Shown piece by piece: positions 9,877 through 60,894 of a stretch of DNA of 64,000 bases; the first letter of the stretch is position 1; each line of letters starts with the position of its first letter. The notes below the pieces were generated by a model. It searched no databases. It was not told the origin of the DNA and worked only from the letters and a program-made list of their open reading frames with translations. A program made the position numbers and the translations under genes. Origin of the DNA: Escherichia coli (lineage in GTDB: Bacteria > Pseudomonadota > Gammaproteobacteria > Enterobacterales > Enterobacteriaceae); assembly GCF_003018255.1 (NCBI RefSeq), contig NZ_CP027440.1. One strand, given 5' to 3'.

Positions 9877-9987
9877 TGCTCTATAAACTCCGTACATCAC
9901 TCAATGCAAGGAACCAGGCTACCGGCTGGATGTACGACCGTGTTTACGGAGTGTTTAGCACTCCGGCCTGATTCTGAATTCTTTTTA

Positions 9988-21936: not shown

Positions 21937-22070
21937 ATGCCGGATGCGGCGTGAACGCCTTATCCTGCCTACCGTTCCAACACCAATTGTAGGCCTGATA
22001 AGACGCGGCAAGCGTCGCATCAGGCATCGTGCGCCGAGTGCCGGATGCGGTGTGAACGCCTTATCCGGCA
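21937..22070. repeat. BIME cluster: three REP elements
   Basis: gatgccggatgcggcgtgaacgccttatcc, ggcctgataagacgcggcaagcgtcgcatcaggc and tgccggatgcggtgtgaacgccttatccggca between convergent yphA and yphB. Confidence 0.8.
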
Positions 22071-24090: not shown

Positions 24091-25089
24091 TTAGCGTTTC
24101 GCTTTACTGCTACGCTGAGTCAGCAAGATATTCGCCAGCACCGCCACCACGATGATGACGCCGCGCACCACCTGCTGGAAAAAGGAGTTAATCCCGAGCA
24201 GCACCAGACCGTTACCGATTAGCGTAATCACCAGTACGCCAAGCAGCGTACCGAACAACGAGCCGCGACCACCGGAAAGCGCCGTACCGCCAACCACGAC
24301 CGCGGCGATGACGTCAAACTCCAGACCGTTTGCGGCACCTGCGTTACCGGAACCGAGGCGCGCCGCCAACAAAATGCCGGTCACCGCCGCTAATAATCCC
24401 GAAAGGGTAAAGATAAGAATGCGTACCCGACGAACGTTAATACCGCACAACTGTGCTGCAGTGGCATTACCGCCAACGGCAAAAACCGAGCGCCCGAAGG
24501 CGGTTTTGCGGCTGATGAACACAAACAGCGCAAACAATACCATCATGATCAGCGCGGATACCGGCACACCGAGAAATTGTCCCCCCAGCCAGTCCAGCAC
24601 TTCGTTTTCATCAATCGGCACTGGCAAGGCGTTGGTCATAAACAGCCCCATTCCGCGCAGGGCGCTCCATAAACCCAGCGTGGCAACAAAACTTGGCACG
24701 TTAAACACGCCGCGCAGCACCCCGGCGAGCGTTCCCATCAGCGCGCCTAACAGCAACACCAGCAGACACGCCACCGCCAGCGGAACTTCAAATTGCAGCA
24801 AAAATGCCAGGCACACCGAGACAAAAGCCACCATCGGACCAACGCTGACATCAATTTCACCGGAGATAATAATCAGCGTCATCGCCCATGCGGCGATCCC
24901 GATGGTGGCGGCATCGCGCAGCACGTTCATCTGGTTATTCAATGAGATAAAGCCAGGCGCGTTCAGAGAGAAGACCAGATAAAGAATGGCGATCACCACC
25001 AGCAAACCGATCTCATTAATATGGCGACTGACAAATTGTTTGAGCGAGACGCTCTTGCCCTGCGGCAATAGTAATGACGAAGCAGACAT
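24091..25089 (-). CDS. yphD: sugar ABC transporter permease (RbsC/AraH-like)
   Basis: ORF track, 332 aa, polytopic membrane protein. Confidence 0.9.
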   Translation of the reverse strand: MSASSLLLPQGKSVSLKQFVSRHINEIGLLVVIAILYLVFSLNAPGFISLNNQMNVLRDAATIGIAAWAMTLIIISGEIDVSVGPMVAFVSVCLAFLLQFEVPLAVACLLVLLLGALMGTLAGVLRGVFNVPSFVATLGLWSALRGMGLFMTNALPVPIDENEVLDWLGGQFLGVPVSALIMMVLFALFVFISRKTAFGRSVFAVGGNATAAQLCGINVRRVRILIFTLSGLLAAVTGILLAARLGSGNAGAANGLEFDVIAAVVVGGTALSGGRGSLFGTLLGVLVITLIGNGLVLLGINSFFQQVVRGVIIVVAVLANILLTQRSSKAKR

Positions 25090-35598: not shown

Positions 35599-36933
35599 TC
35601 ATTCCTTGAAATCGTTTGCATCCAGCTCGTGTCGGGAAAGCAGTTTATAAAATTCTGTCCGGTTGCGCCCCGCCATTCTCGCCGCGTGGGTGACGTTGCC
35701 TTTGGTGATTTGCAGCAGCTTACGCAAATAGTTGAGTTCAAAATGATTACGTGCCTCAACAAAGGTTGGCAGCGCCGTGTTTTCGCCCTCCAGCGCCTGC
35801 TCTACTAATGCATCGCTAATCACCGGAGATGAGGTCAGCGCCACGCACTGTTCAATCACGTTGACCAACTGGCGTACATTACCCGGCCAGCTAGCGGTCA
35901 TCAGGCGTTTCATCGCATCGGTGGAGAACGCGCGGACAAACGGTTTATGTCGCTCTGCCGCCTGGCGCAACAGGTGATTTGCCAGTAGCGGAATGTCTTC
36001 TGTGCGCTCTGCCAGAGCCGGAATTTTCAGGCTGACAACGTTGAGGCGGTAATAGAGATCTTCACGGAATTCCCCGCGCGCCATCGCTTTTGGCAGGTCG
36101 CGGTGAGTGGCGGAAATAATCCGCACGTCGATATCAATATCGCGGTTACTGCCCAGCGGGCGCACTTTACGCTCCTGCAACACACGCAGCAGTTTGACCT
36201 GCAACGGTGCAGGCATATCGCCAATCTCATCGAGAAATAGCGTACCGCCTTCCGCCGCCTGGAATAAACCTTCGCGATTGCTGACAGCGCCAGTAAACGC
36301 GCCACGCGCATGACCAAACAGCTCCGACTCCAGCAATTGCTCGGGCAATGCACCACAGTTAATAGCAATAAATGGTTTGCTATTGCGCGGGCTGGCGTTG
36401 TGGATAGCCTGGGCGAAAATCTCTTTCCCGGTGCCGCTCTGACCGTTAATCAAAACGCTAACGTCTGATTGCGCCACCAGCCGCGCCTGTTCCAGCAAAC
36501 GCAGCATCAGCGGGCTGCGGGTGACAATCGCCTCGCGCCAGCGTTCATCGGTGGCTGGCGCGGATTGTTCCAGCGCATCGTCAATTGCCTGATATAGCGC
36601 GTCTTTATCGACAGGCTTGGTGAGGAAACTGAACACTCCCTGCTGTGTTGCAGCAACGGCATCGGGAATAGAACCATGTGCGGTAAGAATAATTACCGGC
36701 ATTCCCGGCTGCACTTTCTGGATTTCAGCAAACAGCTGCATACCATCCATTTCATCCATCCGCAGGTCGCTGATAACTAAATCTACTTTTTCGCGATTCA
36801 GTACCCGTAATCCTTCAGCACCACTTTCCGCCGTGACCACGCTGTAGCCTTCGCTGGTCAGGCGCAGGCCAAGCAGTTTCAGCAATCCCGGATCGTCATC
36901 GACCAGTAATAAATGCGCAGGTTTATGGCTCAT
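35599..36933 (-). CDS. glrR: sigma54-dependent response regulator GlrR
   Basis: ORF track 35599..37035; start moved to ATG at 36931-36933 ([14 protein letters not shown]...), 444 aa; receiver domain, AAA+ sigma54-interaction domain (GESGTGKE-like, GAFTGA), C-terminal HTH. Confidence 0.95.
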
Positions 36934-37636
36934 CAGGAGTGACCTCATCAGTGGATGGCGCGGGCTTTTCACTCTCGTGCGGCGTATCCGGCGAGAAATT
37001 TCCAGCCGGTTTGCGGGTCGAGAGCTGGCGTTCAATATCGGTCAGGTTTTCCAGCTTGCGGGTAGTGAGTTCCAGTTGCTGTTGTAGAACGTGATGTTGC
37101 TGGCGCAAAGTATCCAGCTCGCTGTCGCTGGACTGCTGGAGTTTACTGTAGCGTTGGCGCTCTTCCGCCAGTTGCAGTTGCAGCGCCTGACCGTCGCGCC
37201 AGAGTTGATACAGAGGGCGAACCTGTGCCGGGATCTCGGTACTTAGCGCATCAATGCGCGCGACCAGCTGGCGGCGCTCATACGGCGTAATTTTGGCGTC
37301 GGCGAGCAAAATCCCTTGTTTAAAGGTATTTTGCCAGTTGCCGTCGTCATATTGGCGGGCTTGCTGACGCGACTGCGCAGGCATTAAACGATCAGCACAA
37401 TCCATCGCCCGCAGCCAGTAAAGCGGATTGGTTTCGGTTGATTTACCTTGCAGCGCCCAGATGTCGCTACATTCAGTAGAAAGATAGTCAGCCAGTTGAT
37501 AAACCGGAATTTTTTCTTCTGCTGGCGTATCAATGGCTGGCTTATTGTGACTCTGCACGCAACCCAGCAATGCCAGACATGGCAGCCCTGCCAGCCACAG
37601 CCGTCGGGGCAATAATCGTTGAAAAATGTGTCGCAT
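36923..37636 (-). CDS. qseG: outer-membrane lipoprotein QseG (YfhG)
   Basis: ORF track 36923..37642; start at MRHIFQRLLPRRLWLAGLPCLALLGC (lipobox), 237 aa; 3' end overlaps the glrR start by 11 bp. Confidence 0.88.
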   Translation of the reverse strand: MRHIFQRLLPRRLWLAGLPCLALLGCVQSHNKPAIDTPAEEKIPVYQLADYLSTECSDIWALQGKSTETNPLYWLRAMDCADRLMPAQSRQQARQYDDGNWQNTFKQGILLADAKITPYERRQLVARIDALSTEIPAQVRPLYQLWRDGQALQLQLAEERQRYSKLQQSSDSELDTLRQQHHVLQQQLELTTRKLENLTDIERQLSTRKPAGNFSPDTPHESEKPAPSTDEVTPDEP

Positions 37637-37800: not shown

Positions 37801-39228
37801 TTATTTCGTGTTTTTCGACGACGGTAAATCAATGCGGAAACAAACGTCTTGCCCGCTCTCGTCGACCAGATACAGTTCCCCTTGCATACGGCGAATACAA
37901 TCCCTGGCAATGCTTAATCCCAGACCGCTGCCCTTCACCGCCCCTTTTCGCTGGTGGCTTCCCTGAAAAAAGGGTTCGAAGATCATGGCGCGTTCCTCTT
38001 GCGGAATGGGCGTGCCTGTATTGATGACATCAATATAAACCCGCGCACCATGTGAACTGCTGCGAAGGCAAATGTTACCGGATTCAGCCCCGTAGTGCAC
38101 CGCATTGGAGTAAAGATTATCCAGTACGCTCATCAGCAGCATTGGCTCCGCCAGGCAAGCTGTTGCTTTGAGATCGACGTCGGTATGCATCATTTTAGCC
38201 CGTGCGGGCAGGCTATGAGCAGAAACCACTGTCTCCACCAGCGGTGCTAATTCAACATTCTCCAGTTCCACCGCACTGTCCGCCTGTTTACGGTTGTAAT
38301 CAAGCAGTTGTTCGATCAGTTTTTGCAAATTGCGGCTGCTGCTATCAAGAATGCTCACCACCTCTTTTTGCTCTGGCGTAAGCGGCCCGACAACCTGGTC
38401 AGCCAGTAATTCAGTGCCCTCGCGCATACTCGCCAGTGGCGTTTTTAATTCATGAGATAAATGTCTTAAAAATTGATGGCGTTGGGATTCCAGCCATGAC
38501 AGGCGCTCACTTAACCAAAGAATACGTTGCCCAACCGAGCGTAACTCGCTCGGTCCACTGAACGAAACGCTATTGCCCAGAGAACGCCCTTCCCCCAGAC
38601 GGTTGATCATGCGCTCGATATTTTTCACCGGCCCGATAATCATCCGCGTGAAAAGTAGCACCATCACCAGACTCACCAGAAATAGCACCAGCGATTGCCA
38701 ACCAAAATATTGCCCACGTTCGGCGATTTCACGCTGAAGTTGCTGCCCACGAGAGAACACCACTGTGCGCGTGGCCTGCACCATTTCGGTATTGGCACTG
38801 GCAAAGGCTTCAAGACGCGCGGCGGCGGCAGCATCGGGACCACTGTTGTTACACTGAAGTTGGGCCAGATTGTTCAAATCCTGACGCAATGCCTGGTAAA
38901 GTTTATCGTCTGGCAGTACGCCTGCGTGGGCATCGAGCATTTCGCTGTAACGCTTGCGCTGGCTTTGATAAACCTTCGCAAGCGTAGGGTCGTCCAGCAC
39001 GCAATACTGACGGTAGCTACGCTCCATCTCCAGCGCCGCGTTGGTCATCGCTTCACTACGCCGGGCATCAATAAGCGTAGTGCGGTTAACCAGCGCCGCC
39101 TGATCGCTAAGCGCATTCAGGCTTTGCCAGGCTTGCCATGCCAGCACCAACAGGGGCAGCAGAATCAGCAAAAATGCCAGCATTACCAGTTGTCGTAATG
39201 AGCGGGGAAAAACGGGCCAGCGTTTCAA
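37801..39228 (-). CDS. glrK: sensor histidine kinase GlrK
   Basis: ORF track 37801..39291; annotated-length start is a TTG at 39226-39228 (MKRWPVFPRSLRQLVMLAFLL...), 475 aa; HAMP region, H-box HELKTPL, ATPase G-boxes. Confidence 0.9.
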   Translation of the reverse strand: MKRWPVFPRSLRQLVMLAFLLILLPLLVLAWQAWQSLNALSDQAALVNRTTLIDARRSEAMTNAALEMERSYRQYCVLDDPTLAKVYQSQRKRYSEMLDAHAGVLPDDKLYQALRQDLNNLAQLQCNNSGPDAAAAARLEAFASANTEMVQATRTVVFSRGQQLQREIAERGQYFGWQSLVLFLVSLVMVLLFTRMIIGPVKNIERMINRLGEGRSLGNSVSFSGPSELRSVGQRILWLSERLSWLESQRHQFLRHLSHELKTPLASMREGTELLADQVVGPLTPEQKEVVSILDSSSRNLQKLIEQLLDYNRKQADSAVELENVELAPLVETVVSAHSLPARAKMMHTDVDLKATACLAEPMLLMSVLDNLYSNAVHYGAESGNICLRSSSHGARVYIDVINTGTPIPQEERAMIFEPFFQGSHQRKGAVKGSGLGLSIARDCIRRMQGELYLVDESGQDVCFRIDLPSSKNTK

Positions 39229-39284
39229 GGTGTTACTCTCGTCAGACGCGAATAGCCTGATGCTAACCGAGGGGAAGTTCAGAT

Positions 39285-39470
39285 ACAACAAAGCCGGGAA
39301 TTACCCGGCTTTGTTATGGAATAAGGCGGTGCCTAACTCGACGTTTCGCCCGATGGTTGATATAGCTACGCTGATATCAGAAGTTGGACGGCAGGCACCT
39401 TGTTGTGCGTCATTCGTATTTTATGTAGCACGTCCCGAAGGGGCTGACATAAGTCGGTGAATGAGCCACT
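39285..39470 (-). ncRNA. glmY: GlmY small RNA
   Basis: Minus-strand sequence from AGTGGCTCATTCACCGACTTATGTCAGCCCCTTCGGGACG... to a terminator hairpin (aacaaagccggg/cccggctttgtt) plus U-tract; about 185 nt; matches the GlmY sequence and its position upstream of glrK as I recall them. Confidence 0.8.
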
Positions 39471-39481
39471 GGTTACTATTA

Positions 39482-39497
39482 TGCAGTAACTGTGCCA
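39482..39497 (-). promoter_or_regulatory. sigma54 (-24/-12) promoter of glmY
   Basis: Minus-strand TGGCACAGTTACTGCA (consensus TGGCACG-N4-TTGCA) about 12 nt upstream of the predicted glmY 5' end. Confidence 0.75.
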
Positions 39498-39586
39498 ATA
39501 AAGAAAATAGTTTGGTAACGTACTGATTGTACGCTGTTTTGAAGGGGTTATGGCTTCTTCGCTATTTGGCTGTAAATCAGCCACTG

Positions 39587-39700
39587 TGTCGCTAAAAAGA
39601 GACAACTTAAGATAAACTTATTAGATGCCATTAAAATCAATTAGTTAAGTGTCGCCAGAAAGCGACGCGGTAAACCACCCATTGTCGTGATTTACAGACA
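39587..39700. promoter_or_regulatory. three GlrR binding sites (TGTC-N10-GACA) upstream of glmY
   Basis: TGTCgctaaaaagaGACA (39587-39604), TGTCgccagaaagcGACG (39650-39667, one mismatch) and TGTCgtgatttacaGACA (39683-39700), at roughly -115 to -230 from the glmY start, as expected for an enhancer-binding protein. Confidence 0.7.
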
Positions 39701-39727
39701 CAAAAAAGCTCCCGAAGTTGGGAGCTT
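39699..39727 (-). terminator. rho-independent terminator of purL
   Basis: Minus-strand stem aagctccc/gggagctt with loop aacttc, followed by TTTTTTGTGT. Confidence 0.75.
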
Positions 39728-39784
39728 ATAATAGTAGTTGGTGCTTAATGCCTCATCCGGCTGCAAAACCAATGGGTTGACGGC

Positions 39785-42700
39785 TTACCCCAACTGCTTA
39801 CGTGCATTGCGGAAAATACGCATCCACGGCCCATCCTCGCCCCAGTTTTCCGGATGCCAGGAGTTGCTGACAGTACGGAAAACACGTTCCGGGTGCGGCA
39901 TCATAATGGTGACTCGACCACTTTCAGTCGTGACTGCCGTAATACCATTCGGAGAACCGTTCGGGTTAGCCGGGTAGGTTTCAGTGACTTTGCCGAAGTT
40001 ATCGACATAGCGCAGTGCCACCAGCCCTTTGCTTTCCAGTGCCGCCAGATGCGCCGCATCACGCACTTCCACGCGCCCTTCGCCATGAGAGACAGCAATC
40101 GGCATTTGCGAGCCCACCATCCCCTGCAACAGCAGAGACGGGCTTTGGGTTACTTCAACCAGGCTGAAACGCGCTTCAAAGCGATCGGAGGTATTGCGCA
40201 CAAAACGTGGCCACAACTCACTACCTGGGATCAGTTCGCGTAGGTTAGACATCATCTGGCAACCGTTACATACCCCCAGCGCCAGCGTTTGCGGACGGTG
40301 GAAGAAGGTTGCAAACTCATCGCGTACACGGTCATTGAACAGGATAGACTTCGCCCAGCCTTCACCAGCACCCAGCACGTCACCGTAGGAGAATCCACCG
40401 CACGCTACCAGAGCGTGGAAATCCTCCAGGCCCGTGCGTCCAGCCAGCAGGTCGCTCATATGCACATCGATTGCATCGAAGCCTGCACGGTGGAAAGCTG
40501 CCGCCATTTCAACATGCGAGTTCACCCCCTGCTCACGCAGCACGGCAACTTTCGGACGCGCACCAGTGGCAATATACGGTGCTGCCACATCTTCGTTGAT
40601 ATCGAACGACAGTTTCACATTCAGGCCCGGATCGGCGTCGTTTGATTTCGCCTGGTGCTCCTGATCGGCACACTCCGGGTTGTCACGCAGGCGCTGCATC
40701 TGCCAGGTAGTTTCTGCCCACCAGACACGCAACGTAGTGCGGCTTTCGCTGAATACAGTCTGCCCGTTGGCGGTAATCACAAAACGGTCACCGGAAACCG
40801 CCTGCCCTACATAATGGACGCAATCCGCAAGCCCATGCTGTGCCAGTACCGCTTCAACGGCTTCACGGTCAGCGGCACGAACCTGAATCACCGCACCCAG
40901 TTCTTCGTTAAACAACGCCGCCAGGCGATCGTCACCCAGAGAGGCGATATCCGCGTCAATGCCGCAATGACCAGCAAAGGCCATTTCCGCCAGCGTTACC
41001 AGCAGGCCGCCATCAGAGCGGTCGTGATACGCCAGCAGCTTACGCTGTGCAACCAGCGCCTGAATCGCGTCATAGAAGCCTTTCAGTTGCGCGACATCGC
41101 GTACATCTGCCGGTTTGTCGCCAAGCTGACGATAAACCTGCGCCAGCGCCGTTGCGCCCAGCGCGTTATTGCCTTTGCCCAAATCAATCAGCAGCAGTGC
41201 GTTATCTTCGGTAGAAAGCTGTGGCGTGATGGTGTGACGTACATCTTCCACGCGGGCAAATGCAGAAATCACCAGCGACAGCGGCGACGTCATTTCGCGC
41301 TCTTCGTTACCTTCCTGCCAACGGGTTTTCATCGACATAGAGTCTTTACCCACCGGGATCGTCAGGCCCAGCGCCGGACAAAGTTCTTCACCCACGGCTT
41401 TAACGGCTTCATACAGGCCTGCATCTTCACCAGGGTGGCCTGCCGCCGCCATCCAGTTGGCGGAAAGTTTAATGCGTTTGATATCGCCAATTTGTGTTGC
41501 GGCGATGTTGGTTAACGCTTCACCGACCGCCAGACGGGCAGAAGCGGCGAAATCCAGCAGCGCAACCGGCGCACGCTCGCCAATCGCCATCGCTTCACCG
41601 TAGTAGCTATCGAGGCTGGCGGTAGTGACCGCGCAGTTAGCGACCGGCACCTGCCACGGACCCACCATCTGATCGCGCGCCACCATGCCGGTTACGCTGC
41701 GGTCACCAATGGTCACCAGGAAAGTTTTCTCCGCCACGGTCGGCAGGTGCAGCACGCGTTTCACCGCGTCAGCAATGGTAATCCCTTCACGAACCAGCGC
41801 ATCACCCTTCGCTTTCAGCGTTTGTACTTCGCGGGTCATCTTCGGCGTTTTACCAAGCAGTACGTCCAGCGGCAGATCGATCGGCTGATTATCAAAATGA
41901 CGATCGTGCAAAGAAAGATGCAGTTCTTCGGTCGCTTCACCAATCACCGCGTATGGCGCGCGCTCACGCTTACACAGTTCGTCAAACAGCGGTAACTGAT
42001 CGGCAGCAACTGCCAGCACGTAGCGTTCCTGGGATTCGTTACACCAGATTTCCAGCGGGCTCATGCCCGGTTCGTCGCTCAGGATATCGCGCAGTTCGAA
42101 TTTACCGCCGCGCCCGCCGTCGCTCACCAGTTCCGGCATGGCGTTAGAAAGACCGCCTGCGCCAACGTCGTGGATAAACAGGATTGGGTTGGCATCACCA
42201 AGCTGCCAGCAACGGTCGATCACTTCCTGGCAGCGACGCTCCATCTCCGGGTTGTCGCGCTGTACGGAAGCGAAGTCGAGGTCGGCATCAGACTGACCAG
42301 ACGCCATGGAAGACGCCGCGCCGCCGCCAAGACCGATGTTCATTGCCGGGCCGCCGAGAACGACCAGCTTCGCACCAACGTTGATCTCGCCTTTTTGTAC
42401 GTGATCGGCACGAATGTTGCCGATCCCGCCCGCCAGCATGATCGGTTTGTGATAACCGCGCAGCTCTTCGCCATTGTGGCTGTTCACTTTTTCTTCATAA
42501 GTACGGAAGTAGCCATTCAGTGCCGGACGACCAAATTCGTTGTTAAACGCCGCACCGCCCAGCGGGCCTTCGGTCATGATGTCCAGCGCGGTAACAATGC
42601 GCTCAGGTTTACCGAAATCTTCTTCCCACGGCTGTTCGAAGCCAGGAATTCGCAGGTTGGACACGGAGAAACCGACCAGACCAGCTTTCGGCTTCGCGCC

Positions 42701-43672
42701 GCGCCCGGTGGCACCTTCATCGCGGATTTCACCGCCGGAACCGGTCGCCGCGCCCGGCCACGGAGAAATCGCCGTCGGGTGGTTGTGAGTTTCAACTTTC
42801 ATCAGGATATGCGCAGGTTCCTGATGGAAATCGTAGCGGCCCGTTTCGTGGTCAGCAAAGTAGCGGCCCACTTCAGAACCTTCCATTACGGCGGCGTTAT
42901 CTTTATAAGCAGAGAGAACGTGATCCGGCGTGGTTTCGAAGGTGTTTTTGATCATCTTAAACAGTGATTTCGGCTGCTGTTCACCATCGATAACCCAGTC
43001 GGCGTTAAAAATTTTGTGGCGGCAGTGCTCGGAGTTCGCCTGGGCAAACATATACAGTTCGATGTCGTTCGGGTTACGACCCAGCTTTGTGAAAGCATCC
43101 TGCAAATAGTCAATTTCATCTTCCGCCAGTGCCAGGCCAAGACGCAGGTTAGCGTCGATTAGCGCCTGACGGCCCTGCCCCAGCAAATCAACGCTGGTGA
43201 CCGGAGTCGGTTGATGGTGTGCAAACAGCTGCTCTGCATCATCTAAAGCAAAAAAGACCGTTTCCATCATGCGGTCGTGCAGTTCAGCGGTAACCTGCTG
43301 CCATTGTTCATTGGTCAGCGTACCGGCTTCTACATAGTAAGCAACGCCGCGCTCAAGGCGGTTTACCTGTTGTAGACCGCAATTATGGGCGATATCGGTC
43401 GCTTTCGAAGACCAGGGAGAGATGGTGCCAGGACGCGGGGTCACCAGCAGGAGTTTGCCTTGCGGGGCGTGGCTGGCGAGTGCCGGGCCATATTTCAGCA
43501 GGCGTTCAAGTTGTGCGTGCTCATCATCGTTTAACGGCGCATTGAGGTCAGCAAAATGGACATACTCGGCGTAAATAGTGTGAACCGGGAGCCTGGCAGC
43601 CTGAAAACGTGCCAGCAGTTTGTTGATTCGGAATGCCGACAATGCAGGCGAACCACGCAGAATTTCCATCAT
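39785..43672 (-). CDS. purL: phosphoribosylformylglycinamidine (FGAM) synthase
   Basis: ORF track, 1295 aa, [20 protein letters not shown]... Confidence 0.97.
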
Positions 43673-48648: not shown

Positions 48649-48726
48649 TGTTGGAATCGTGTGCTGCACAAAATTAAAGTTGTAAAGTGAAAACCCCCGT
48701 TCCTTACCAGTTCGGGGGTTTTACTT
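48649..48726 (+). ncRNA. ohsC: OhsC antitoxin sRNA (candidate boundaries)
   Basis: Plus-strand -10-like CATAAT (48637-48642) and terminator hairpin cccccg/cggggg plus TTTTACTT. Its 5' segment ttggaatcgtgtgctgcac (48651-48669) repeats ttggaatcgagtgctgcac (48402-48420) in the shoB 5' UTR region, giving 18 of 19 nt complementarity to the shoB mRNA. Ends inferred. Confidence 0.55.
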
Positions 48727-48747
48727 TATAAAGAGAACGGTATTTTT

Positions 48748-50610: not shown

Positions 50611-52223
<1,613 letters not shown>

Positions 52224-52226
52224 TCA

Positions 52227-52320
52227 GCACACGAAACAGACCTGATATACATGGCTCGGCTAACTGCTTCACTGCAGTTTCAGTTTACCGGTATATGGGG
52301 ACCAACGCTGTTTCGTGTGC
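52227..52320 (-). promoter_or_regulatory. rnc 5' leader long stem-loop (candidate RNase III autoregulatory site)
   Basis: gcacacgaaacag (52227-52239) and ctgtttcgtgtgc (52308-52320) are perfect inverted repeats about 70 nt apart in the rnc leader. Confidence 0.55.
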
Positions 52321-52419
52321 CGTGGCAACCTAGAGGTGCCAACCTTAAACTTCGGGGGAATATTCTATACACAACGACGGGGGATGTCGTTAGCCACGGG
52401 AGATTTATCTCATAAATAA

Positions 52420-53454: not shown

Positions 53455-55254
<1,800 letters not shown>

Positions 55255-55451
55255 AAAGTATGATTATTGTGCCTTAATGCCCGGTTAACCAGGCTTTTAG
55301 AAGTCGCTGTTCTGAGCTTAACGTCTGTATTAATAGAAACGCCGCATTCTACACTACAACATTGAGGCGAGGAAATGTTCATACCGTATGGATTGTGGTA
55401 TCTGGAAACGTCCTCGCATTTGTTATGCAAAATGCAACAAAGCCAGTGAAA

Positions 55452-55931
55452 TCACTGGCTCGCGTCTTCCGAAGATGTTTCAAATCGCACAAGGCCAGGC
55501 GGCAAGGCCACGCTTAAGATGATCGGTTGCCATTCAGACCGGGCAGCAAACTTTCGAGAGCAGCCACGTGCAATCAGGAATCCACCAACGCCACCGAGAA
55601 TCGCACCGCATAATGCTGCAATATCTGAAGCAAAGAGTAGCTGAAATAGTGAAGCGATGAGGAATAGTCCCACCAACGGCGACATATAAACCAGTAATGC
55701 GGAGCTAAGCAGGCTGCCTTCGGCGATTCCTAATTCTACTTTTTGCCCCGGCACTAACGGCTCATCACAGGGTACGACAATGGTATGCGTGGTTTGCGGG
55801 CCAAGTTTATTCAACACGCGGCTACCGCAACCGGCACGTGAAGCGCAGCTGCTGCATGAGGCTTTAACATCACAACTAACCAGCGCCTGCCCGTTTTCCC
55901 AGGAGACGACGGTAGCCCACTCTTTGATCAT
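55452..55931 (-). CDS. rseC: sigma-E regulatory protein RseC
   Basis: ORF track, 159 aa, MIKEWATVVSWENGQALV... Confidence 0.93.
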   Translation of the reverse strand: MIKEWATVVSWENGQALVSCDVKASCSSCASRAGCGSRVLNKLGPQTTHTIVVPCDEPLVPGQKVELGIAEGSLLSSALLVYMSPLVGLFLIASLFQLLFASDIAALCGAILGGVGGFLIARGCSRKFAARSEWQPIILSVALPPGLVRFETSSEDASQ

Positions 55932-56884
55932 TGCGCTGCCCCGAACTTAATATTCTCGGCAATGCGTTTCGCCGTTTGCGGCGGCAGTTCACCGACAATG
56001 GTGATTTCGGCGTTATCACGTACGCTTGTACTGACGGTTCTGCGCCCGGTGCGCAACATCTGATCGGTGCTCGATGGCGTAGCGCGGTTAACGTTTACCG
56101 AGAAGCTGAATAATCCGTCGGAATAGAGACGTGATTCGATAGGCATGTTGTCCATCGTCGGTAGCGGACGTCGACTACTGGAAACTTCGCTAAAACCCTG
56201 TGGCAACCAGGTTGGCGTCCAGCTGAATTTAGCTTTTTCACCTACAGGAACAGAAAGCAACGGCGGCAAATTTGCCTTCGCCAGCGTCTGCATACTGCTG
56301 CTGATATCCTGATTGACATTAAAAGCAATCACGCGAAATTGTTCCAGCGTTTCACCATCGCGATCAAGGAGATCAACCCGCATCGGTAATTTCGATTCGG
56401 TGTCCATCCACACGATGTAGCTGTAGCGTGTACCATCTCGGGCAACCACACGAATGACTTCGCAAAGACGATCAGCAATACGCGTGCGCCCGACGGAGAT
56501 AAAGTCGTAGTAAGGAGAAAGGCGTTTGAAATCGGTATAGATGAGCGATGGTAGAGAATCAACAATGTAATCGCCATTAAGCGTGAACGGTTCAAGTCCC
56601 GGTTCAAAATAGCTGATTTCATTGCCGCGCTGTACCACTTCCCGGCGCGGGCCATCCATTTGCAACAATTGTGCAAGAGGACGGTTATCGAGGCGTGCAT
56701 GTCGATAACGCAGAGACTCAACACCCTGTTTATTGATGCTGATGAATGACAGCTCGTAATTCAGTGACTGACTGGCCAGGTTCATCTGCTGTAATAACGC
56801 CCCGGACGCGGGAGTGGCCGAGGCGTTAGCAGAGAATAACAGGCTACCTGTCACTAATGACATGGCAAACCAAAGTTGCTTCAT
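55928..56884 (-). CDS. rseB: sigma-E regulatory protein RseB (periplasmic)
   Basis: ORF track, 318 aa, signal peptide MKQLWFAMSLVTGSLLFSANASA. Confidence 0.95.
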   Translation of the reverse strand: MKQLWFAMSLVTGSLLFSANASATPASGALLQQMNLASQSLNYELSFISINKQGVESLRYRHARLDNRPLAQLLQMDGPRREVVQRGNEISYFEPGLEPFTLNGDYIVDSLPSLIYTDFKRLSPYYDFISVGRTRIADRLCEVIRVVARDGTRYSYIVWMDTESKLPMRVDLLDRDGETLEQFRVIAFNVNQDISSSMQTLAKANLPPLLSVPVGEKAKFSWTPTWLPQGFSEVSSSRRPLPTMDNMPIESRLYSDGLFSFSVNVNRATPSSTDQMLRTGRRTVSTSVRDNAEITIVGELPPQTAKRIAENIKFGAAQ

Positions 56885-57566: not shown

Positions 57567-58142
57567 TCAACGCCTGATAAGCGGTTGAACTTTGTTATCA
57601 ATAGCTTCCCTCGCTCGGAAGATACGTGAACGCACCGTACCTACCGGACAATCCATGATAGCGGCTATCTCTTCATAGCTCAGGCCATCCAGCTCCCGCA
57701 AGGTTATTGCCATGCGTAAATCTTCCGGGAGGGACTCAATAGTTCGGAAAACTATCTGTCTCAGTTCTTCTGACAACATTAAGTTCTCAGGGTTCGAAAT
57801 TTCTTTCAACGCGCCGCCACTTTCGAAGTTTTCAGCTTCAATGGCATCCACATCACTGGAAGGTGGACGACGCCCCTGAGCAACCAGGTAATTTTTCGCT
57901 GTATTTACAGCAATCCGATACAGCCATGTATAAAAAGCGCTATCTCCCCGGAACGAATCCAGCGCACGATAGGCTTTAATAAAAGCTTCTTGTACCACAT
58001 CGGGAACATCACCCGACGGCACATAGCGGGAAACCAGACTCGCCACTTTATGCTGATAGCGCACTACCAGTAAGTTAAAGGCTTTCTGATCTCCCTTCTG
58101 GACCCGTTCAACCAGGACCTGGTCCGTTAACTGCTCGCTCAT
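57567..58142 (-). CDS. rpoE: RNA polymerase sigma-E factor (ECF sigma-24)
   Basis: ORF track 57567..58175; start at MSEQLTDQVLVERVQKGDQKAF..., 191 aa. Confidence 0.96.
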   Translation of the reverse strand: MSEQLTDQVLVERVQKGDQKAFNLLVVRYQHKVASLVSRYVPSGDVPDVVQEAFIKAYRALDSFRGDSAFYTWLYRIAVNTAKNYLVAQGRRPPSSDVDAIEAENFESGGALKEISNPENLMLSEELRQIVFRTIESLPEDLRMAITLRELDGLSYEEIAAIMDCPVGTVRSRIFRAREAIDNKVQPLIRR

Positions 58143-58224
58143 CCGAGGTAAAGTCTCCCCAAACCAAATTTCCACGCGCTATCGAAACGCCACTCCATTA
58201 GCTGCAATTTGAGCAAGCAAAGGG

Positions 58225-58252
58225 TTAGAGTGTCTCGTTTTTGTAAAGTTCC
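58225..58252 (-). promoter_or_regulatory. sigma-E-dependent promoter of rpoE (autoregulated)
   Basis: Minus-strand GGAACTT, 16-nt spacer, TCTAA (cGGAACTTtacaaaaacgagacacTCTAAc), about 80 bp upstream of the rpoE ATG. Confidence 0.7.
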
Positions 58253-58525
58253 GTAACGCATCTGTTTTTGTTTGTCATGCTGTAGACGGATCATTATCTA
58301 TCATTATAAGTCTACAGAATCTGAACATCGCATTATCTGTGTAGAAATGCCCATTTAACTGCCTGAAGAGTAACCCAACGGCCTTTTTATTTCACCACCT
58401 AATCCTCCACCAGCCAGTAACTTCTCTTTTTCTCGCCGCCCTGAGTCAGCGTGTTTAGTCACTGTAACAAATATTAAAATAGCAGGTGTTTAATCGCACA
58501 ACATGATGCTATGCTGACCAAACCA

Positions 58526-60894
<2,369 letters not shown>

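Follow-up and report, generated by a model that had tools for sequence, protein, structure and literature searches.

What does the 556-bp spacer between purL and glrK encode in Escherichia coli, and what would switch it on? The window analysed here is the whole stretch of 64,000 nucleotides. For this window, an earlier sequence-only reading had placed the small RNA GlmY on the minus strand of the spacer, from 39470 to about 39285, as known biology that a track of open reading frames does not reveal. Both remarks hold. Published work on the promoter architecture agrees (PMC3045617, PMC4152352, PMC4591121), and no feature is annotated at the locus in the examined RefSeq records except K-12, so that recognition from the letters alone fills a real annotation gap. 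The minus-strand locus at 39287-39470 is, with a confidence close to certainty, E. coli glmY, an independently transcribed 184-nt sRNA gene between purL and glrK-qseG-glrR. The gene, which takes part in controlling the production of cell-envelope sugars, and its sigma-54 promoter with GlrR and IHF sites are already known and well characterised, and a rare allele of one GlrR site is the sole mildly new element.

The identity of the gene was established by an Rfam search and by alignment to the annotated E. coli glmY, both of which had been proposed with the first reading. The Rfam model RF00128 (GlmY_tke1) matched with 146 bits (gathering score 33; E 1.5e-32), over model positions 1-163 of 163. 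The match spans 39323-39470, the first 148 nt of the gene. In the pairwise alignment, positions 39287-39470 are identical at 184 of 184 sites to glmY of K-12 MG1655 (b4441, also SroF or Tke1), which is annotated there as a 184-nt ncRNA between glrK and purL. With its ends transferred from K-12, the RNA would start at A 39470 and open with AGTGGCTCATTCACCGACTTATGTCAGCCCCTTCGGGACG (minus strand). The alignment to b4441 upholds the first-read identity and 5' end at 39470, and moves the 3' end by 2 nt, to 39287. From -57 to the glrK start codon the window is 100% identical to K-12, including the core promoter, the terminator and the spacer to glrK. The remainder of the intergenic region differs by 23 substitutions and a single 1-nt indel, every one of them upstream of -57.

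The synteny of glmY is the same in the window and K-12. Neighbour annotation was taken from a RefSeq genome that matches the 556-bp intergenic query at 100% identity. Upstream of glmY lies purL (39785-43672), identified by an NCBIfam equivalog match and the annotation of this identical-spacer genome. Downstream, glrK/qseE encodes a sensor kinase (37801-39228, minus) with a TTG start 58 nt past the glmY terminator. It is followed by qseG (36923-37636, minus), for a lipoprotein needed for GlrK activity, and by glrR/qseF (35599-36933, minus), for a sigma-54 enhancer-binding response regulator. Equivalog matches to QseG (NF007997, 359 bits, cut-off 234) and GlrR (NF011695, 981 bits, cut-off 763) together with RefSeq annotation bear out the downstream order of glrK, qseG and glrR that had been read from the sequence. 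The glrK product retrieved generic histidine-kinase matches only in the NCBIfam search, all under their curated cut-offs, and is named from the annotation of the identical-spacer genome and of K-12. GlnB likewise has an NCBIfam equivalog match in the window. A search of 5426 complete E. coli genomes found the 556-bp spacer in 5425, three of which carry it with 100% identity. The window also holds further Rfam matches above gathering score (2001-2645, 9878-9987, 21992-22070, 48650-48727, 52139-52353 and 55136-55967), which belong to the IS128 and ryfA sRNAs, the iscRS element, naRNA4, the ohsC antitoxin RNA, the rncO leader and AsrC (antisense to rseC).

The predicted fold of the transcript has two 5' stem-loops, which a short single-stranded linker joins to a terminator hairpin. 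Folded as a whole, the 184 nt reach -64.2 kcal/mol (z = -4.8), a value matched by none of 200 shuffles. The intrinsic terminator (ACAAAGCCGGG TAATT CCCGGCTTTGTT; 39287-39316, minus) was correctly recognised in the first reading and has a 12-bp stem in both the minimum-free-energy and the centroid fold. A simple terminator scan missed it because its T-tail is interrupted. Covariation was assessed by mapping the window fold onto an alignment (A2) of 55 GlmY homologues that are mutually less than 95% identical. Paired cells make up 89.9% in these homologues, compared with 34-42% when partners are slid by one to three columns. Compensatory double changes were detected at 25 pairs, and none of 500 shuffles reached the observed values. 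The terminator (helix 8) shows compensatory changes across species at 10 of its 12 pairs, and RNAalifold independently recovered the two 5' stem-loops with seven compensatory pairs. In K-12, the 184-nt GlmY is trimmed at its 3' end to an active form of 148 nt (PMC4152352). The processed span in the window would be 39323-39470 (minus), which equals the RF00128 match, and we infer cleavage at 39323 from the 148-nt length alone.

The same alignment bears on whether the region encodes a small protein and its RNA-like features are incidental. Two mechanical open reading frames of 76-79 aa do overlap it, at 39366-39605 (minus, 79 aa) and 39230-39460 (plus, 76 aa). However, neither K-12 nor the examined RefSeq genomes have a CDS annotated there, and the minus-strand frame would have its start upstream of the promoter, bordering on the GlrR site ABS3. 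Substitutions within stems are compensatory, and homologue lengths fall evenly across the classes modulo 3 (21/19/15). Such an even distribution indicates that indels ignore frame and that the overlapping frames are not coding. A stop-free-stretch statistic does not discriminate between the readings and was left unused. On length classes, stem compensation and the lack of CDS annotation the coding reading was rejected, and its probability is negligible.

An RNA gene at this position could in principle be the paralogue GlmZ (SraJ), the base-pairing activator of glmS, rather than GlmY. The two RNAs belong to one Rfam clan (CL00011) and share the two 5' stem-loops recognised by RapZ, with 57% identity over these first two stem-loops (GlmY 1-148). 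The GlmY model nevertheless scored above the overlapping GlmZ match, which was dropped, and the 100% identity is to b4441 (glmY) and not to b4456. The locus lies upstream of glrK and is not flanked by aslA and hemY. A functional distinction resides in the linker. That of GlmZ is complementary to the glmS leader, and GlmZ acts with Hfq by base-pairing, whereas GlmY lacks this complementarity and functions as a protein decoy. Because glmS lies outside the window, the K-12 leader served as the target. Against it, the GlmY linker reached -9.0 kcal/mol, which 103 of 500 shuffles also attained, compared with -22.9 kcal/mol and 2 of 500 for the K-12 GlmZ linker. The linker-only test was used in place of whole-molecule RNAduplex of GlmY and GlmZ, in which shuffles scored equally as long interior loops are allowed. 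Model scores, identity to b4441 and the linker test rule out GlmZ, to which we assign next to no probability, and the RNA is read as GlmY from here on. In most Enterobacterales, glmZ also carries a sigma-54 promoter with GlrR and IHF sites (PMC3045617), whereas E. coli glmZ has a sigma-70 promoter only and occupies another locus. GlmY resembles CsrB and CsrC, which titrate the RNA-binding protein CsrA instead of pairing with mRNAs (PMC4152352). Unlike these, GlmY lacks many repeated short motifs and imitates a single specific sRNA, the substrate of an RNase adaptor.

Directly upstream of the start, where the sequence-only reading had seen it, lies a sigma-54 -24/-12 element (TGGCACAGTTACTGCA; 39482-39497, minus) that matches 10 of 11 consensus positions, with GG at -26/-25 and GC at -14/-13 from the annotated +1. 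The element is identical to the motif TTGGCACAGTTACTGCA of the K-12 sigma-54 ChIP-seq site OS24, which was assigned to glmY (PMC4591121). TGGCA-N7-TGCW occurs at the equivalent position in all 91 species listed in the comparison described below, and glmY's sigma-54 promoter has been reported as conserved in all Enterobacteriaceae (Göpel et al., PMC3045617). By count, the sigma-54 pattern does not exceed shuffles in the window (3 found, 2.1 expected). One further strong sigma-54-like motif (TGGCATTTTTGCTGCA; 24794-24809, minus) lies on the sense strand inside yphD, which encodes an ABC permease. Sigma-54 sites within genes are common in E. coli, and yphD does not appear in the main text of the ChIP-seq study (PMC4591121). 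Overlapping the -12 element of glmY is a putative sigma-70 -10 box, CATAAT (39478-39483, minus), which has been described as part of a weak sigma-70 promoter with a shared start nucleotide (PMC3045617). The box is identical to K-12 and moderately conserved across species. At 17-bp spacing, the best -35 candidate is TTTCTT (2 of 6 matching), and the consensus promoter scan did not pick up this overlapping promoter.

Three TGTC-N10-GACA repeats had been read upstream of the promoter, at 39587-39604, 39650-39667 and 39683-39700, with the middle one imperfect. All three are present as described, two of them perfect, and the middle one has a single outer-base mismatch. They are the candidate GlrR (QseF) sites ABS1 (TGTCTGTAAATCACGACA; 39683-39700, minus; -230 to -213), which is perfect, ABS2 (CGTCGCTTTCTGGCGACA; 39650-39667, minus; -197 to -180), which reads CGTC...GACA, and ABS3 (TGTCTCTTTTTAGCGACA; 39587-39604, minus; -134 to -117), also perfect. 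For glmY, Göpel et al. described three sites of the form TGTCN10GACA lying over 100 bp upstream and reported that in K-12 ABS1 is dispensable while ABS2 and ABS3 are essential for the sigma-54 promoter (PMC3045617). ABS1 and ABS3 are identical in the window and K-12. Motif counts within the window are by themselves not beyond chance: perfect repeats number 2 against 0.63 expected (13 of 100 shuffles reach 2), and repeats with at most one mismatch number 15 against 21 expected. The case for the sites consequently rests on clustering and cross-species conservation. Three of the 15 sites with at most one mismatch fall within 114 bp (simulated p ~0.004).

To follow conservation, a conserved GlmY 3' motif was sought in a single genome of each species, which gave at least 120 loci. 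The footprint set consists of the 91 listed loci that offer sufficient upstream sequence and have a GlrK homologue directly downstream in the same orientation, and this gene order accordingly occurs in at least 91 species. Among the 91 species listed, G2, T3, A16 and C17 are invariant in ABS1, ABS2 and ABS3. In ABS2, C4 and G15 are likewise invariant in 91 of 91, leaving positions 2-4 and 15-17 unchanging. ABS3 keeps G15 in 91 of 91, and at its position 4 the base is C in 42 of those listed and T in 46. The spacers between half-sites vary freely. At ABS2 and again at ABS3, 5-14 of the 91 species listed show variation at position 1 or at position 18, its mirror. In ABS2, T occupies position 1 in 86 of the 91, C in 4 (the window counted) and G in 1, and position 18 is G in 6, giving the mirror-image GACG. 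The footprint thereby offers a position-by-position view of the GlrR site, in which GT...AC is invariant and the outermost T/A is least constrained. In Serratia, the GlmY 3' motif matches two loci per genome among those listed (L028/L030, L031, L063/L064, L083/L084, L090/L091), with glrK downstream of one of the two only. The second locus is presumably glmZ, which would share the 3' motif in those genera, unlike in E. coli.

IHF sites between enhancer and promoter, which the first reading had proposed looking for, are present as two perfect matches to WATCARNNNNTTR with conserved cores. The distal match (AATCAATTAGTTA; 39635-39647, plus; -177 to -165) lies between ABS2 and ABS3, and the proximal, IHF-like match (AATCAGTACGTTA; 39516-39528, minus; -58 to -46) between ABS3 and the promoter. 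Two IHF-like regions have been reported to flank ABS3, the distal one being essential (PMC3045617). The distal and proximal 13-mers probably correspond to the published IHF 'site 1' and 'site 2', respectively. The distal core TAA....TTGATT is kept in 82-91 of the 91 species listed, and C4, A5, T12 and A13 of the proximal match in 82-90 of 91. The proximal site is identical to K-12, and the distal site differs by one base in its non-consensus part. Enhancers of the NtrC type at sigma-54 promoters (glnHp2, nifH) have inverted-repeat sites for an AAA+ activator more than 100 bp from the -24/-12 element, with IHF in between. These comprise two activator sites, whereas glmY has three, together with two IHF-like sites and a sigma-70 promoter that is exactly superimposed and shares the start nucleotide.

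The arrangement suggests a mechanism in which start site, protein binding, processing and RapZ decoy action are carried over from the literature on the identical K-12 sequence. Transcription from A 39470 would proceed through two superimposed promoters, the sigma-54 -24/-12 element and the weak sigma-70 promoter. The sigma-54 promoter would stay silent until phosphorylated GlrR (QseF) occupies the inverted repeats at -230, -197 and -134. IHF would then bend the DNA in between, bringing the GlrR oligomer into contact with the closed complex and driving open-complex formation. Transcription of K-12 glmY indeed depends on rpoN, glrR, glrK and ihf (PMC3045617). GlrR is expected to be phosphorylated by GlrK (QseE), which would need the lipoprotein QseG and whose autophosphorylation would be stimulated by RapZ free of glucosamine-6-phosphate. 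A requirement for QseG in GlrK/GlrR signalling (PMC6075780) and an action of RapZ on glmY through QseE/QseF (PMC7073468) have both been reported. The transcript would stop at the hairpin at 39316-39287 and be trimmed to about 148 nt. This form would not pair with glmS and would instead mimic the two 5' stem-loops of GlmZ and sequester RapZ, the RNase E adaptor. With RapZ sequestered by GlmY, GlmZ is protected from RNase E (PMC4152352) and free to activate glmS. Full-length GlmZ would thus be spared, glmS translation activated and glucosamine-6-phosphate restored.

The boundaries of the gene show further features. The purL intrinsic terminator (AAGCTCCCAACTTCGGGAGCTT followed by a T-run; 39706-39727, minus), found by the terminator scan, has a T-tail that runs straight into ABS1. 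Between the purL stop codon and this terminator, at 39729-39784 (around 39760), a REP-like unit of about 19 bp (CCGGATGAGGCATTAAGCA) is present once in the window and in K-12. A second, tandem copy (CCCGGATGAGGCATTCACG) is present in 7 of 11 other sampled E. coli genomes, which makes it a common indel polymorphism. At the other end, a consensus sigma-70 scan on the strand of glrK found no sigma-70-like site in 39229-39470. According to the literature, glrK has its own promoter in E. coli. In Proteus mirabilis, glmY-qseEGF reportedly forms a single operon (PMC8745638). Given the gap of only 58 nt (39229-39286), the lack of a sigma-70-like site and the P. mirabilis operon, read-through past the glmY terminator could contribute to glrK expression. 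Taken as a whole, the sequence-only reading is incomplete and not wrong. It omits the sigma-70 promoter, the IHF sites, processing to 148 nt, the purL terminator abutting ABS1 and the strain-specific nature of the middle GlrR site.

Among the differences from K-12, the first base of ABS2 (39667) stands out, being C in the window and T in K-12, where TGTC is perfect. BLAST identity bands were too coarse to count this variant, and the count was instead made with allele-specific megablast queries of 39 nt, alongside 11 sampled genomes that were read at the site. At least 9 of 5426 complete E. coli genomes carry the C variant, a lower bound, as carriers with a second nearby change are missed by such queries. 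Carriers fall into two groups. Four human-associated isolates (three from human hosts, one from a rectal swab of ICU staff) share the haplotype of the window, and five cattle-associated isolates have a different flanking haplotype. Ten genomes sampled evenly from the full ranking all have T at ABS2 position 1, and one of these, 14EC001 (L005), carries the mirror-image GACG in ABS2. The occurrence of C on two haplotypes suggests recurrent mutation or recombination.

ABS2 is off consensus in a site reported essential in K-12, so that full sigma-54 activity in the strain of the window is an assumption. The change might weaken GlrR binding and cripple the sigma-54 promoter. Expression of glmY would then come mainly from the weak constitutive sigma-70 promoter and respond poorly to depletion of glucosamine-6-phosphate. 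Besides the reported need for ABS2 (PMC3045617), this possibility can draw on the rarity of the variant in E. coli and on the T, which belongs to each of the two published consensus forms (TGTCN10GACA and TGTN12ACA) and prevails across the species listed. Yet the changed base is the outermost of the site. Across the 91 species listed, positions 1 and 18 vary and G2, T3, A16 and C17 never do, and three other species have CGTC in ABS2 in addition to the six with the mirror-image GACG. The same change on two haplotype backgrounds within E. coli fits a tolerated, near-neutral change. We consider a crippled promoter unlikely. Since the T-to-C change affects the outermost and least conserved base, it is probably tolerated and most likely has little or no effect, judging from these comparisons. 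A functional defect of any kind appears improbable, and it is quite doubtful that the change measurably lowers sigma-54/GlrR-dependent induction of glmY.

A further locus in the window touches on GlrR. The gene rpoE (57567-58142, minus) adjoins the rpoE-nadB spacer (58143-58549). The rpoE P2 promoter is reportedly a second sigma-54 promoter activated by QseF/GlrR. Motif scans of the spacer detected TGT-N12-ACA at 58543-58526 and again at 58469-58452, as well as a weak sigma-54-like TGGCGTTTCGATAGCG that begins at 58192.

GlmY is a textbook case both of a decoy sRNA and of an sRNA whose gene is under a sigma-54 enhancer, and its confirmation here adds nothing new on the system. The ABS2 allele is a rare natural variant in an enhancer site reported as essential, and its effect could be tested cheaply. 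If the doubtful loss of induction were true, lineages with ABS2-C would have a blunted response to glucosamine-6-phosphate, an envelope precursor, and possibly blunted QseEF-linked virulence signalling. ABS2-C would then represent a natural step in the proposed drift in Escherichia from sigma-54 to sigma-70 control of GlmY and GlmZ.
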